A stretch of DNA of 62,489 nt, filler included, from Globobulimina sp. (Eukaryota), in the NCBI GenBank assembly GCA_003354225.1. It is 24 parts of 24 records of this genome, joined end to end, with 100 filler letters (N's around TTAATTAATTAA, not from the genome) between each part and the next. Parts side by side here need not be neighbours in the genome. Positions count along the whole stretch, not along the records: positions 49,557 to 52,063 come from PIVH01006277.1; 23 more parts are not named here. One strand, 5' to 3'. The notes beneath the pieces are model-generated. The model saw only the letters and a list, made by a program, of their open reading frames with translations. It ran no database searches and was not told the origin of the DNA. The stretch's first letter is position 1; the number at the start of each line of letters is the position of its first letter. A program made the position numbers and the translations under genes. Of the stretch, positions 2,611-53,543 are shown in pieces.

Positions 2611-3710
2611 AAATGCTGCCATTTTATCCTTTTCCGACATCAAAAACATTGTTAATTCAAACATCCATTCCTTGTAATTTTCAATATACTTTTTATACTG
2701 CACTTGTATAGAATACATTATTGCAATCATTAGCCATGCATTGACAATCAAAGCACCCACTTCAATTTGCCATTCTTTATCGCGCAAAGTTATAAATGTT
2801 TTTTCGCGCAAACCGTCAGATGGATCACCAACAAATATGCGAGTTAAGCCTGGAATACATCCGTAAAAAACCCCTAACATTACTATAATTAAAATATTTA
2901 AACATCCTAATTTTAGGTTTTTATTTTTGTCAATCGATGATAAATAGCCTCGTAAAAACTATTGATATTAAACCAAAGAATGTTGCCACAAAAACTTTAC
3001 TAACATTCAAAAATTTACTTTACTAAATTAAGGTAAGTTAATCATGGCAGCATTCTTTAGTTGCAACACACAATGAATACCTTATAAGCACTGGTCGTTC
3101 GATCAAAATTCTCCCCGAAGTATAGTTTGATGGATCTTAATCTTGTGAGTGGAGGTAAATGTGGTTTTATTTTAGATTCATATGCAATCCATAAAGATAA
3201 TAATATCCAAATCACACAATATAATAACAGCGGGCCAACAGTTTCCATTAAAGATACTCTCAAATCTTTACCATTTGCATTAAATCCAATGTATACATTA
3301 TAAATGCAAATAAAGTATAAAATACAAATCCAAATTGCTAATACTAATCGTTGTATTTTCTGCGAACATGTTTGCCTTAAAAACCATTTCCTATCCTTCT
3401 CAATTTCCGGGTCTTGATTTGGTTTCCTTCCAATTACAAGACCCATAAAATCGAGTAATATGCCATCATGAATGTCATTATATTTATATTTCTTTGGATA
3501 ATAAAAGCCGCCTTTATTGCCTTCAATGTACAACAAAAACGCAAGCGATTGCAATAAAATCACAATCGGCAAAAACATTCCACAGATTATGGAAATCATA
3601 AATCGTTTCCAATAAAACGTACGTCCGATACTAAAATGTTTCGATGATAAAATCGGTTCAAACCCTTTATCTTTTGGTAAATTATGAACTGGAAATAATT
3701 TAATTTGATC
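2611..3710 (-). CDS. Polytopic membrane protein exons (3081-3710 and 2611-2958, intron 2959-3080); 3' truncated; possibly the C-terminal part of the upstream Ras gene
   Basis: Several hydrophobic helices; phase-0 GT-AG intron gives SAYK|FLRGYLSS...MLGVFYGCIPG; exon starts after a T-rich tract and AAG. Confidence 0.7.
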
Positions 3711-4050
3711 CTTAACAAAAAACATAATATTGGTCAAAAATAGTTATTCCACTCAACAAAAAACATGAACTGCGATGTAAACGTTTTTACTCAGTCTGGA
3801 GAGCAATCAATTAATATTAAACAATAACACTCCAACTGATAATATATAGAATGTTGTTGCTGAAAGATACAACATATTGCGCTCAAACATAGTTTTTATA
3901 TATTGAGGAAATCAAAACGCTGAGAAAAAAATCTTTACAATGCAGATAATGTAAAAACGTTATTATTCCTAAACGTTTTTGCAATGGATTCCAATTGCAA
4001 TTAACTGAATATATTTCATTAAAATGCAATCTGAATCCATTCAAAGTGCA

Positions 4051-48237: not shown

Positions 48238-49972
48238 CTGCAGGGTACAGTCACCATGCATACAGGTGCCGTGGTACTAGCTATAGCTATAATATAAATA
48301 GAAACGTTACCATACCATATATACGTACATACAGTAGTATATTGCATCGGTTCTCACATCATTTATTGCCGCACAATAGGATACTGGATGCAAAATTTCA
48401 GGGGGAGCAGGCGTTTTGACTTCTCGCCGGCTTGCATCTGACTTGGCTCCCCACCTAGAACCCTTTTTCAGATATGTATACGAAAGCGCTAGAGGCAATG
48501 TATGTGATGCAATGATAGCTCTAAGAGCCTTGCATTCCCCTATTCCAACAAACACGACGTTTCCATGATTCTAACACATGCTGCATGCCATCAGTGGCGG
48601 AAAACTCCAAAAGAAGATAAATTTCACGACATGGCATTCCAAGCACTTGTGGAGAGTAAAAACGGCATTATATATCACTTGGTAAGTAACACTCTAAAGC
48701 TGATTGTTTGTTTGATGTACTGTTTCGTTCCTTGTGCCAAAAAATACAATCATCATCTACCTTAGGACGCACTTCTTGACTTATCACCTGGTTTCTTCTT
48801 CTCGCGGCCCCATGGCACACCACACGGCCCGGCATTGGAGCCATTGCAGCGTGTCACCCAATGGGGTAATTTCTACAATCCAAACCTTCCTGCCGTGTTC
48901 CACTTAGTTAGGGGCCCCTACCTGCTGCATTTACATAACCTTAGGTACGTATGTGCTGATTGTATGCTGTTCTAGTTCAGAGGGAGAGGGTAACAATATT
49001 TCTGGTGCATAAAATTATCTATTCACACGTGAGGCATAGTACGCATTTTGTTTTTTTGGTTCTAACGGATGGCTCTGAAGCTGCTCCGATAGATACCACG
49101 CACGTCACCTTATACATCATTAATTGTTGTTTTTTCCGTCTCCAGCAATGTGTACACCTGTAATAGTGTAAGCACACCACCACCTCGCTTCTCAATTTCT
49201 ACCCTAGCTGTGGGCGTCTACCAGAACAATCGGTCACTCAGGTTCTTTCTCCTTTTTTTCTTGAACGTAATAACAATACAACACGTCAGGCATTTGATCT
49301 CATCACTTATCTGTAATTTTAGCACAGTTGATGAGGCAAGAATAAGGAATACGTGGGGAAAGAACTGGGATGAACCCGTAAGTAATCCAAATGAACTAGT
49401 ACTACTACCTGCAATAGTAAATGGCACTCTGTTATTACGATTAAATCCAACTCTACNNNNNNNNNNNNNNNNNNNNNNNNNNNNNNNNNNNNNNNNNNNN
49501 TTAATTAATTAANNNNNNNNNNNNNNNNNNNNNNNNNNNNNNNNNNNNNNNNNNNNTTAGATTTGATTAGATTTGATTAGACTTGATTCGAAAACCTTGA
49601 CTCAAAAAACAGTTTTTTAAGCTTAGTTCAACGTTTGAAAATCAAACAGCATCCTCCCTTGACGAACAAATTAAGTTTTCATTTGCGTGAAATGAGCCAT
49701 ACGAACAGTAATATTGAGAAATGCATTGATAAATGTATTGAATTTATAGAAGAAGAAGAAAAAAGAAATTCAAAACAAGAAAGGGAGGAAGTAAAAGAAG
49801 AGAATGTGTATCAACGAATGGAGCAACTCTTTGAAGTTTATAATTTGTGGAAGAATAATAAGAAATAAATCAAATATTTATGCTATAATTTGCAAACATT
49901 ATCAATTTAATTTGCAACAACATCAAATCCGCCATGATGACGAACGCCTGCAACATAAAATTAATAACTGAC

Positions 49973-51830
49973 TGACTGAACTGACTTACTGACTTAACTT
50001 TTTTAATTTTATTGCGTCATGCCCTTGGTTGTTTTCACTACGCAAATGAAAGATTTGATTGTAAAATTGTTCAATGAAACAGATTATATATATAACGGCG
50101 GACAAGATTCATCACAAAAATTCGATGCAAACAATTATTTATTCGAAAAATTCAATGCGATTTTCAGTGATATGGTGACATTTAAACAATTTCAAACTAA
50201 ATTAAATTGGTTGAGATGTTTCGAAAGTATAAAATTTACACGAACTTTGTTTCAATGTCCAAAACCTAATTGCAATTATGCACCGTTTACCGGGTGGAAG
50301 GGGTTTATATATCATTGTGCCCGTAATAAGTGTGGTGACGGTTTAAATGTAATTAAAAGATATCAACAAAACCGCGGTGTAAATGGTAAACGACCAACCA
50401 TAGATAAGACATATAATGCGAGGTCGACAGCCGTATACGGTTATGATGAATATACATTTATGGATCGCACAGCAAATGAAATAATATTTACTCAAAAAAA
50501 AGTACCAGTGCTGGAAAGGTATATGAAAAGGCAATTTACTTCAATGTTAAACAGGAATGGTTTGAGTTTGGTAGAATACACTGAAACTCGGCGACGAAGA
50601 AATGAAGCTTTGAAACAAGAAAGGATGAAGAACAAAAATTATGGGTCGAATATAGTTTTTGATTTTCTTTTCTCTCTGTGTGTTATTGATGAACATAAAT
50701 TAAGTGTGGTGCCCATCGATTTAGATAAGAAATTGGCAAGTTTTGAATGCAATGAAAATGGTCATAAGTCGTATCAGCAAAGGTCGGGCAATTGGGAGGC
50801 TTTGAGACCAGTCATTAGTTCTTTATTGGACATGGATCCCCATAATATTGAATGGTTTGAAGTTGCGATAAATGTAACGTACACAAGACGGTGGTTGATT
50901 TTGATGAGGTTGAGAATGCAATTATTTTTATGACATATCGCGTATTAAATTTTGTGTCAAAGCCGTATATGCCCTCTAAAGTATTCCCTCAAGTCATGTT
51001 TGTAGGGCAATATAGTGAGGAAGAATTAGAAAAAAACATAAAAAGAAATAAAGTTTTAATGGATGAATTGGAAAAATTGACCATTGAGGGCCGTGAAGTG
51101 CTGCGACAAACATTACAAAGTTATTCATATATGTATCAAGACCATGGCAGAAATCGCGGTATGCGTAAATATTCAAACCATGGTGGCCATTTCTATGATG
51201 TTATATTGCGTGATGCCAAGTTGATTCACAGTGTATTCACAAATCATGACTTATCGCGGGATAAAAAACGCCAGTTATTGCGTCAAATGGCAATATATCC
51301 AATACAATTAATGATTAAATTTTCCAATTCATCTAATTTTAATATCTTATGGTTACAGACGCCATTTAATCCGCAAATTTTTGTATATTTTCCTGAGGAG
51401 TATAAACAATTTTATTTATATGACATAAAACCCCGAAATATATTTATGTATGATATGGAAAATGAGAAATTAAGATATTATTTATTAAATGGTGAATACA
51501 GAGATGTTTATTTATCCGCATTTGATACAACGGGACAGATTAAAAATCGCATTGATAACTATCTTTTGTTCAATGTCGATTATCAGAAACATCTCAACGT
51601 ACAACAAAATAAATAGATTCAAATTAAATACCAATTAATACCAATATTAAAAGTGTATCATTTTCAATATTGACAATTATTTATAACATTTTATAAAACA
51701 TTTGGATGTGTTTGTATTTTTCCTTTTGTATTATTATTATTTGTTGCGTGTTTCAATGTCCATTATCAGCATTGATAATCTCAAAAATTGATAAAATTAA
51801 AAAAGTTCAGTCAGTCAGTCAGTTCAGTCA
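49973..51830. repeat. 40-bp inverted repeat pair (49973-50012 and 51791-51830; 38/40 identical)
   Basis: Left TGACTGAACTGACTTACTGACTTAACTTTTTTAATTTTAT; right reverse complement TGACTGAACTGACTGACTGACTGAACTTTTTTAATTTTAT. Confidence 0.9.
50019..51616 (+). CDS. Myb/SANT-like plus zinc-finger protein split by a -1 frameshift near 50860
   Basis: 'FTTQMKDLIVKLF...FNAIF...VTFKQFQTKLNWLR' (Myb/SANT-like); 'FQCPKPNC...FIYHCARNKC'; second frame opens at 'SCDKCNVH' straight after 'WFE'. Confidence 0.6.
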
Positions 51831-52163
51831 TCACGCGCATAATTGCAAGAATATCATTAGTAATAATCCGCCATAATCGGATTTACATTGCGCTAAAAAC
51901 TTAAAAAATTTATCCTTCATATACTTATTATATTCATTGGACTCATCTTTATCTTTATGAATATTATCCATTTTATATAATACTTGCTTGCATATTGCAA
52001 TGGCTCTTTGTAAATGGATCTCACCTTTGTTCTTATCATAATAATGTAGCCATTGTATATTACNNNNNNNNNNNNNNNNNNNNNNNNNNNNNNNNNNNNN
52101 NNNNNNNTTAATTAATTAANNNNNNNNNNNNNNNNNNNNNNNNNNNNNNNNNNNNNNNNNNNN

Positions 52164-53451
52164 CCAGAAATAAGTCGGTAAACAAAGCAAATGCTTCCAA
52201 TTCGCTTTCAGTGATTCCATTTTCAACAGAAACCAATAAATAAACATGATGAATGCGAGTGAAGTTGAGATGAATACATCGATTTATTAAATCCAAAATA
52301 ATAGCAGACGTATTTGCAGCTGCCACATCTTGCAACATTCTGTGAAAAAAAGGTGATGAATCCATAATGTTGACATTCAATTTGTTGTTAACTCCTTCTA
52401 ATTCCGTGTCAAATATATGAATTAGGTCATTCTCGTAGGCGTTGGAAATGATACTAAGTAATCCGGTGTCATTTAAACTTTCCTTATTTTGAAGCACTGC
52501 AATTGAACTTGTTATTGCTTCTTCCGATGAACCGATGAATATAATATTGCGAACATTGGAAACTGCTTTGTTTTGGTACGTATACTTTCTATTATTATTA
52601 TTGTGATCGATATCATTGAAGAAAGTTTTATCAAATGTTAAAATGTCATCATCACAAAGCATTGTTCCATAACAGCAATCATTCAATGTCTGCTTTGCGT
52701 GCCTTACCAATGCTAAATAATGTTGATAGACACCAACTTGTTTAATGTCGATAGATACATTTTGTTGAACAATATGTTGCAGCAATTTCATTCTTTGTAA
52801 CTGCACATTTTGTCGCAACTTTGTTTTGTTGAACATATTTGATGGCTGAGCTGCTCCCAAAAAAAATATTCTCCCATTTGTACGCTGATATAATGGCTGC
52901 AAATCTGGAATATATTTGAATTGATCAATGTAATGTTCATATTGTTTTTGTGTTGATATATTTTGAGCAAATGATATAATGATTGATATTTTATCTTCAA
53001 TGCCCAAAAACCTCTGAGCGTACAAAAGAAATGAATCTATTTCTTGTCTATTTATTCCTCTTTGAATGGATATAACCAAATAAAAGTGATTAATGTTTGT
53101 AATCTCCAGATCAATGCACTTCTTTATGATATGCAGAATGTGTTCACTTTGATTTTCTGCATTCAATGCGTACGTAAACGACTCTGGAATACTCAGAACA
53201 TTAAAATGCAAAATATTATGCTTCCTCCTCGATTTCATTGCAAATGATTCAACTGATACTTGTGCAGTGTCATCTATAATTGGAGCAAAACCAGGATGAT
53301 AATTATTATCTTTCAGAACTTCAATCAATTCATTTGCTCTGCCAATCAATACGATATTACGAACATATGCTTCAATCAATTGATAATCACATTTTGTAAA
53401 TAAGGCATTGATCAGTAACATGTACAACAATAAAGGAAACAAACATGCCAT
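52164..53451 (-). CDS. Signal-peptide protein with tandem degenerate AIG1/GIMAP-like G domains; 3' truncated
   Basis: Two repeats 'VRNI(V/I)(L/F)IG...I..CI.L..T.I.H.YL..S...GI...E...F.L....FL'. Confidence 0.6.
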
Positions 53452-53543
53452 CAAAAGTGAAGCTTACTGGAAAGAATACTAAAATAGCATAATCCAAAAA
53501 CTTTAAACTTTTCCCAGTTTCATTTAAAACTTATCAACGAAAC

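Follow-up and report, generated by a model that had tools for sequence, protein, structure and literature searches.

An inverted-repeat-bounded orphan gene in Globobulimina sp., tentatively attributed to a transposon that lost its transposase

Results

Architecture of the C6277 locus

The window analyzed here is a stretch of 62,489 nucleotides from Globobulimina sp. in which 24 contigs of about 2.5 kb are joined by 100-nt N linkers. Its source is a strongly fragmented and perhaps incomplete assembly of 70 Mb in 48,370 contigs, from an AT-rich genome with spliceosomal introns, such as a 92-nt GT-AG intron in a gene on contig C48104. Most of one contig of the window, C6277, is occupied by a unit in which two mutually inverted arms enclose an intronless gene (Table 1). 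The start codon lies 6 nt past the left arm and the stop codon (51614-51616) 174 nt before the right arm. The arms are complementary at 38 of 40 positions (95%) and, with one gap allowed, reach 49969-50012 and 51791-51833 at a score of 71. An earlier sequence-only reading of this DNA had described a 40-bp repeat (38/40) located 6 nt before the ATG at 50019 and recurring inverted about 175 nt after the stop, and both arms were indeed found at these places.

Elsewhere in the window, a plus-strand frame cut by a contig end (46041-46901) reads like what we take to be the N-terminal nuclease domain of the Exo1/XPG family, and a long minus-strand frame (52164-53463) consists of two similar halves, presumably degenerate AIG1-type GTPase domains.

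Table 1 Features of contig C6277, in window coordinates.
Feature	Position	Strand	Remarks
Whole contig (G000:C6277)	49557-52063		2507 bp; bounded by N linkers
Left flank, truncated and internally deleted 5' piece of a multi-copy gene family	49602-49906	+	outside the unit
Left flank, 54 bp of the C48104 gene	49913-49966	-	100% over 54 nt; 3' end of an intron and start of the next exon
Left inverted-repeat arm	49973-50012	+	CTGA-word core, then T-rich tail
Intronless gene, probably 535 aa	50019-51616	+	frame split in the window
N-terminal three-helix region, Myb/SANT- or MADF-like by pattern	50019-50240	+	low-confidence model
Putative C2HC zinc finger, C80-x4-C85-x13-H99-x5-C105	50256-50333	+	from sequence; no Pfam match
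Segment common to the relative on C1177	50487-50618	+	residues 157-199; 49% aa identity over 43 aa
Second Cys/His cluster, C244-x4-H249 ... DPHNI ... CDKCNVHK	50748-50887	+	spans the frame break
Right inverted-repeat arm	51791-51830	-	40 nt; pairs with the left arm
Right flank, truncated part of a TPR-like gene	51853-52063	-	C27482, continuing into C27352; 94% over 226 nt; outside the unit

Four sequencing runs (X1, X2, X3 and X5) were compared with the locus as contigs only. X2 belongs to another study, and X3 stems from the sample of X1, which may itself be the source sample of the assembly. The run contigs leave the left arm uncovered in all four runs and 50734-50890 uncovered in X1, and among the listed pieces of the four runs none extends across the whole unit. 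The assembly lacks the loose-end words of X1 contigs at 50480 and 51675, and these ends possibly represent extra loci.

The inverted-repeat arms are confined to one locus

The inverted-repeat score of 71 at C6277 compares with scores of 23 to 40 in the other 23 of the 24 window contigs and of at most 40 in 200 third-order Markov simulations, and, among 140 random 2.5-kb pieces drawn from 60 further contigs (425 kb), one scored at least 71. When at most one mismatch is allowed, the two arms are the sole occurrences of the 22-nt arm core in the 70-Mb assembly. Four occurrences were counted for the 13-nt core, two of them in the arms, and five for the reversed control. The right 311 bp likewise matched no contig but C6277, and metagenome contigs contained no match to the arm pattern. 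CTGA-type words are not enriched in the 120 nt preceding 140 long-frame starts (ACTGA 18 times, shuffle mean 15.6), and the 425 kb contained one further cluster of them (two overlapping matches on C308). Since the repeat is confined to the C6277 locus and scores far above chance, the arms share descent and constitute neither a dispersed satellite nor a general promoter word, and the dispersed regulatory motifs that the sequence-only reading had offered as a fallback were not borne out.

Three explanations of the arms were considered and rejected: a general promoter word, by the absence of CTGA enrichment before frame starts; a telomere-like or satellite repeat, by the genome-wide core counts; and a hairpin at the left end, which 15 of 200 shuffles matched in stability (z -1.5). 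The two copies of the 13-nt core outside the arms lie on C6433 (about 990-1010), spanning the end of an ankyrin-like frame some 85 nt before the next ATG, and on C21864 (1129-1141), where the core precedes a T-rich run and an AG and resembles an intron branch region.

An assembly search returned no DNA match on other contigs for the stretch from 49967 to about 51850. Unit-specific sequence extends 2-6 nt beyond the left arm and up to about 20 nt beyond the right one, and the arm positions thus nearly coincide with the limits of unit-unique sequence (49967; about 51840-51852). The copy-number check recommended in the sequence-only reading accordingly yielded boundaries near 49967 and 51850 and a single copy; besides a decayed relative on C1177, no other copy of the interior was found in the assembly.

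Inverted repeats of other kinds were observed elsewhere in the genome. On C204, a 1.6-kb unit (107-1724) encloses a single intronless frame, which matches a sulfotransferase profile (PF17784, E 6e-6), between inverted repeats of 65 bp (94%). The first nine letters of this repeat are those of window positions 51840-51848 read on the minus strand, and a strong palindrome lies at 224-322. Because this sulfotransferase-like gene is bracketed in the same manner, bracketing alone is no proof of a transposon. On C101, a 131-bp inverted repeat of 99% identity (3220-3350 and 3651-3781, about 300 bp apart) is situated between two long frames.

The enclosed gene probably encodes one 535-residue protein

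In the window the coding region is divided into a frame of 304 aa (50019-50933) and another, in a different frame, of 251 aa (50861-51616). Contigs of two runs carry 10 extra letters at the frame break (X2, record 14, 162 letters over 152 places; X3, record 23, 496 letters over 486 places), and the corresponding loss in the window sits somewhere in 50768-50919. With the 10 bases included, the gene measures 1608 nt, or 535 codons plus a stop, so the likely product is 535 aa long and not about 525 aa, as proposed earlier; the coding region is intronless, as that proposal held, although split in the window. The second frame contains stops at 50816, 50843, 50849 and 50858, so the extra bases would restore the frame only if they are stop-free and lie after 50858. 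Judged from these contigs, the coding region probably is one continuous, intact gene of 535 codons, and the frameshift is unlikely to be fixed. A pair of translationally coupled genes meeting at the ATGA overlap (50930-50933) was ruled out by the extra bases of X2 and X3 and by the C1177 relic, whose match to the second frame lies upstream of that ATG.

In the second study the gene is near-identical, with two differences listed in the coding region. Moreover, the contigs of X2, X3 and X5 include the C48104 gene with its intron precisely removed (loose end at 49948) together with parts of the C6277 coding region. This combination fits transcription of the locus, with DNA carry-over as a further possible source, as the contigs show neither strand nor level.

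The protein combines DNA-binding-like motifs and has no detectable homologue elsewhere

The N-terminal region is predicted to form three helices (residues 8-25, 37-49 and 63-69) in a single-sequence AlphaFold model with a pLDDT of about 30-45, and an Atlas neighbour of this region (0.76) carries MADF and C2H2 domains. The Myb/SANT-like N-terminus of the sequence-only reading is retained as a helical pattern but finds no profile support. The region is absent from the three PF13837 matches of the genome, aligns to them by hhalign with a probability of 0.15%, and in pairwise comparison with two genuine domains is equalled by 82 and 458 of 2000 shuffles. The predicted CxxxxC..H...C finger and CDKC..H motif are present, in the first and second frame, respectively. 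The second cluster as a whole is likened here to the end of the HNH nuclease consensus. Both the Myb/SANT and the HNH-like readings are leads at the level of motifs only.

Neither half of the protein matched a family profile in Pfam, PHROGs or NCBIfam, including those for HNH nucleases, and the C-terminal 240 residues accordingly received no family assignment. No DDE signal was found in the protein, in agreement with the sequence-only reading; an HUH triplet or a usable HxxR context was not detected by pattern, and recombinase and HUH profiles gave no match. The suggested fold check for an RNase H, a tyrosine recombinase or an HUH fold likewise produced no signal: the single-sequence models were poor (mean pLDDT 41 and 35), and fold searches with them gave no hit at Z of at least 8 or E below 0.001 and are uninformative on the fold.

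Homologues were sought widely. The first half had no match at E 0.001 among 1.84 billion protein representatives and no homologue among candidates of near (383) or greater (1072) length; for the second half, 527 longer candidates contained none. No orthologue was found in a set of 5.8 billion proteins. Residues 1-112 gave two chance rows against PDB sequences, Rfam gave one (E 0.1), and neither the metagenome contigs searched with the second half nor viral contigs contained a homologue. Since these protein searches perform best at close relatives, the orphan status holds at that sensitivity. A virus- or plasmid-like cassette, as the sequence-only reading had also entertained, was left without a viral or plasmid relative. 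The picture of a common satellite unlinked to a single-copy frame with cellular orthologues is likewise not what was found, the repeat being unique to the locus and no cellular orthologue having appeared; repeat and gene thus belong together as a unit.

A decayed relative lies on another contig

An interrupted and decayed relative of the gene is located on the minus strand of C1177 (170-560). In addition to the segment listed in Table 1, it matches residues 13-58 of the second frame, in order (score 49; 0 of 300 shuffles as high), and this second-frame segment sits upstream of the ATG at 50930. The presence of both halves in order supports a single gene. Differences in the shared segment are distributed over the three codon positions as 12, 13 and 16, so little constraint is visible. 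In place of the middle part, the relic contains about 190 nt resembling what we take to be an RCC1 repeat, and it lies downstream of a 1041-codon frame rich in coiled coils.

The flanks are fragments of other genes

The gene-family piece on the left is matched by over 20 other contigs at 72-98%, and 14 copies were aligned. Fuller copies of this family start with MGNT, which we take to be a possible myristoylation signal, and many copies are truncated or rearranged. On the right, the TPR-like gene is intact on C27482, and the full gene gives weak TPR/FAT matches in Pfam. A second junction in this gene was not found (two matches only); the remaining part was found on C27482 alone, which leaves a simple insertion without a visible second end, and the idea that the unit had inserted into the TPR-like gene and had its other end elsewhere was rejected. 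One X1 contig (record 7) covers the gene's 3' half and the right arm and continues for 30 letters into the TPR-like piece with zero differences, one letter below the bridging threshold.

No target-site duplication was found flush with the arms, as already noted from the sequence, and the assembly contains neither an empty site nor a contig joining both flanks. Direct repeats of 3 bp were obtained for 11 of 578 candidate end pairs, compared with about 13 predicted from base composition; TWA pairs account for three, none of them flush with both arms. As a separate observation, the stretches 49898-49966 and 51834-51900, although derived from unrelated genes, are alike and share a 10-mer. Scores as high were obtained by 12 of 3000 random genomic 67-mers, a post hoc comparison for which the scoring was chosen after the likeness had been seen.

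Harbinger-type loci in the genome

Harbinger-type transposases (PF13359) were detected in 38 matches on 37 contigs of the genome, C6277 not being among them. Among the 23 of these 37 contigs that were examined, none shares the arm (best score 25) and none gives a clear protein match (one weak match of 34 aa, E 0.04). A canonical tail-to-tail Harbinger pair, in which the end of a transposase gene (PF13359) faces a Myb/SANT-like gene (PF13837), is found on C14377 (1-1272).

Discussion

The best explanation for the unit, to which we assign a probability of roughly 0.4, is a non-autonomous, inverted-repeat-bounded cassette that derives from a two-component cut-and-paste transposon and has lost the transposase. 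The ancestral element would have kept its ends and the gene for a DNA-binding helper. The three-helix domain and the zinc finger would bind the repeated CTGA words in each arm, the protein would hold the two ends together, and a transposase encoded elsewhere would have done the cutting in trans. The present copy would be old or stranded in a rearranged patch of gene fragments, and it may drift towards a role for the host. Two mismatches between the arms, unmatched outermost bases, the occurrence of one copy and the rearranged surroundings suggest that the C6277 copy is probably immobile.

In favour of such an origin, locus-unique arms tightly bracket one compact, intronless and probably intact gene. 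The C1177 relic is decayed and interrupted, as relics of mobile families are, both flanks consist of broken pieces of other loci, and Harbinger-type transposases are encoded in the genome. Against it, one copy was found, with no flush target-site duplication, no empty site and no link to the examined Harbinger contigs, and a near-identical gene in a second study fits a fixed host locus equally well. The poor scores of the Myb/SANT-like region, the similarly bracketed gene on C204 and the low constraint visible in the comparison with the relic also count against it. Of the mobile element envisaged in the sequence-only reading, the unit of repeat and gene has stood; the signs of mobility have not, and nothing at C6277 speaks positively for an active mobile element.

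Harbinger transposons are two-gene cut-and-paste elements that encode a DNA-binding protein and a transposase (PMC9179366, PMC9921582), with terminal inverted repeats of 25-50 bp bound by the Myb-like protein (PMC9179366). The C6277 unit resembles autonomous PIF/Harbinger elements in arm length and in its possible trihelix DNA-binding protein, but differs in having no DDE transposase gene between the arms and no flush 3-bp duplication. A closer counterpart is Harbinger-1M_cIno of Caenorhabditis inopinata, for which 1.63-kb MADF-only elements bounded by terminal inverted repeats and moved in trans are reported (bioRxiv 10.64898/2026.05.26.728016; also listed as PMC13668399). This form has more than 20 near-identical copies, 3-bp TWA duplications, a MADF domain detectable by Pfam, and a cognate DDE locus with the same terminal repeats (bioRxiv 10.64898/2026.05.26.728016). 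The C6277 unit is similar in size (1.86 kb), in its inverted ends, in its single gene with no transposase inside, in its putative N-terminal MADF/Myb-like region and in the presence of transposases of the superfamily elsewhere in the genome. In contrast, no TWA duplication, sister copies, Pfam-detectable MADF domain or DDE locus sharing the repeats was found for C6277, and its protein is longer and contains two extra Cys/His clusters. If it is an element at all, the unit would work like a MADF-only PIF/Harbinger derivative; since a transposase, a flush TWA duplication and sister copies were all not found, it is not filed as Harbinger. The sequence-only reading had thought the element possibly undescribed. 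Because the MADF-only arrangement is already known (bioRxiv 10.64898/2026.05.26.728016), the transposase-less architecture bounded by inverted repeats is not in itself new.

Two other kinds of element invite comparison. Pack-type elements with terminal inverted repeats and units formed by Helitron-like capture are transposase-less and carry fragments from several host genes. At C6277 the fragments lie outside the arms and not between them, and no Rep-helicase or cognate transposase was found. Shintrons are spliceosomal homing introns of mirusviruses that lack terminal complementarity (PMC12768974). C6277 shares with them a candidate HNH-type gene antisense to host exon pieces and a minus-strand splice acceptor just outside the left arm, but it possesses terminal complementarity and its nuclease is putative. 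A shintron was ruled out, as the exon pieces on either side come from different genes (C48104 and C27482).

A host origin of the whole unit is the main rival explanation and only a little less probable. Here the gene would be specific to the lineage and encode a nuclear DNA-binding protein, and the arms would stem from one local inverted duplication, made by repair or template switching in a region that also gained fragments of other genes; they would be without a role, or the left arm would be the promoter of the gene. The single copy and its near-identity in the second study are what a host gene would show, and the lack of a target-site duplication, an empty site and a link to the examined Harbinger loci is equally expected. 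An ordinary-looking gene bracketed by inverted repeats exists on C204 (the one case among 140 pieces), the related CTGA cluster on C6433 precedes an ATG by about 85 nt, and the coverage of coding parts in the three runs that hold the spliced C48104 gene would fit transcription. However, neither the 1.84 billion representatives nor the 5.8-billion set yielded an orthologue, the gene has a decayed fragment as its sole relative, and the arms lie nearly at the limits of unit-unique sequence, which a random duplication need not do. If this explanation is true, the locus adds another orphan to a lineage that has been sampled poorly.

It is unlikely that a real gene has come to lie on a chimeric contig and that its flanks, perhaps with the left arm, were fused to it during amplification or assembly. 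Three unrelated loci do meet within 2.5 kb of a very fragmented assembly, none of the listed run pieces extends from end to end, and past the right junction the X1 contig adds only 30 letters. That same contig, however, passes from the 3' half of the gene through the right arm into the TPR-like piece with no difference; moreover, a newly made fold-back copy would not show the mismatches at 2 of 40 positions and the unmatched outer bases that separate the arms, and the gene-family piece on the left has deletions and substitutions of its own.

About as unlikely, finally, is a self-mobilizing element in which an HNH-type nuclease replaces the transposase, the Myb-like domain and the finger binding the arms, the HNH-like module cutting a preferred target, and repair copying the unit in along with short pieces of earlier target loci. 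This idea draws on the CxxCNxxK motif, which has DPxN(I) and a C-x4-H pair ahead of it, on Atlas neighbours of the second half (a cluster named 'HNH endonuclease family protein' at 0.87 and HNH_5 at 0.76, at a recognition value of 1354 that lies below the trusted level), on the post hoc likeness of the flanks, and on the exact 54-bp copy of another gene at the left. Against it, no HNH profile matches, the position expected to hold the catalytic His reads Glu-Ala by eye against the HNH consensus, the CDKCN motif would be wholly untranslated if the extra bases lie after 50887, and one copy only was found, which is neither inside the intron of a single gene nor a shintron. Highly improbable in turn is that this amounts to a new kind of eukaryotic element, one whose single protein unites a Myb-like end-binding domain, a zinc finger and an HNH-type nuclease, with no DDE, recombinase or HUH enzyme, and which, bounded by its own 40-bp ends, inserts into similar targets by cut-and-repair and leaves gene fragments instead of a target-site duplication. 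The literature yielded no report that combines an HNH endonuclease, terminal inverted repeats, and Myb and zinc-finger domains in a eukaryotic transposon, and a nuclease-driven element would represent a new route of mobility with inverted ends.

Should the unit instead be the transposase-less derivative of a two-component transposon that we favour, elements reduced to a helper gene, to date described as unusual in one nematode, would extend to a distant protist, with a protein that is unrelated to the nematode one and larger. Such a finding would matter to specialists in transposons and would leave the general understanding of these elements unchanged.
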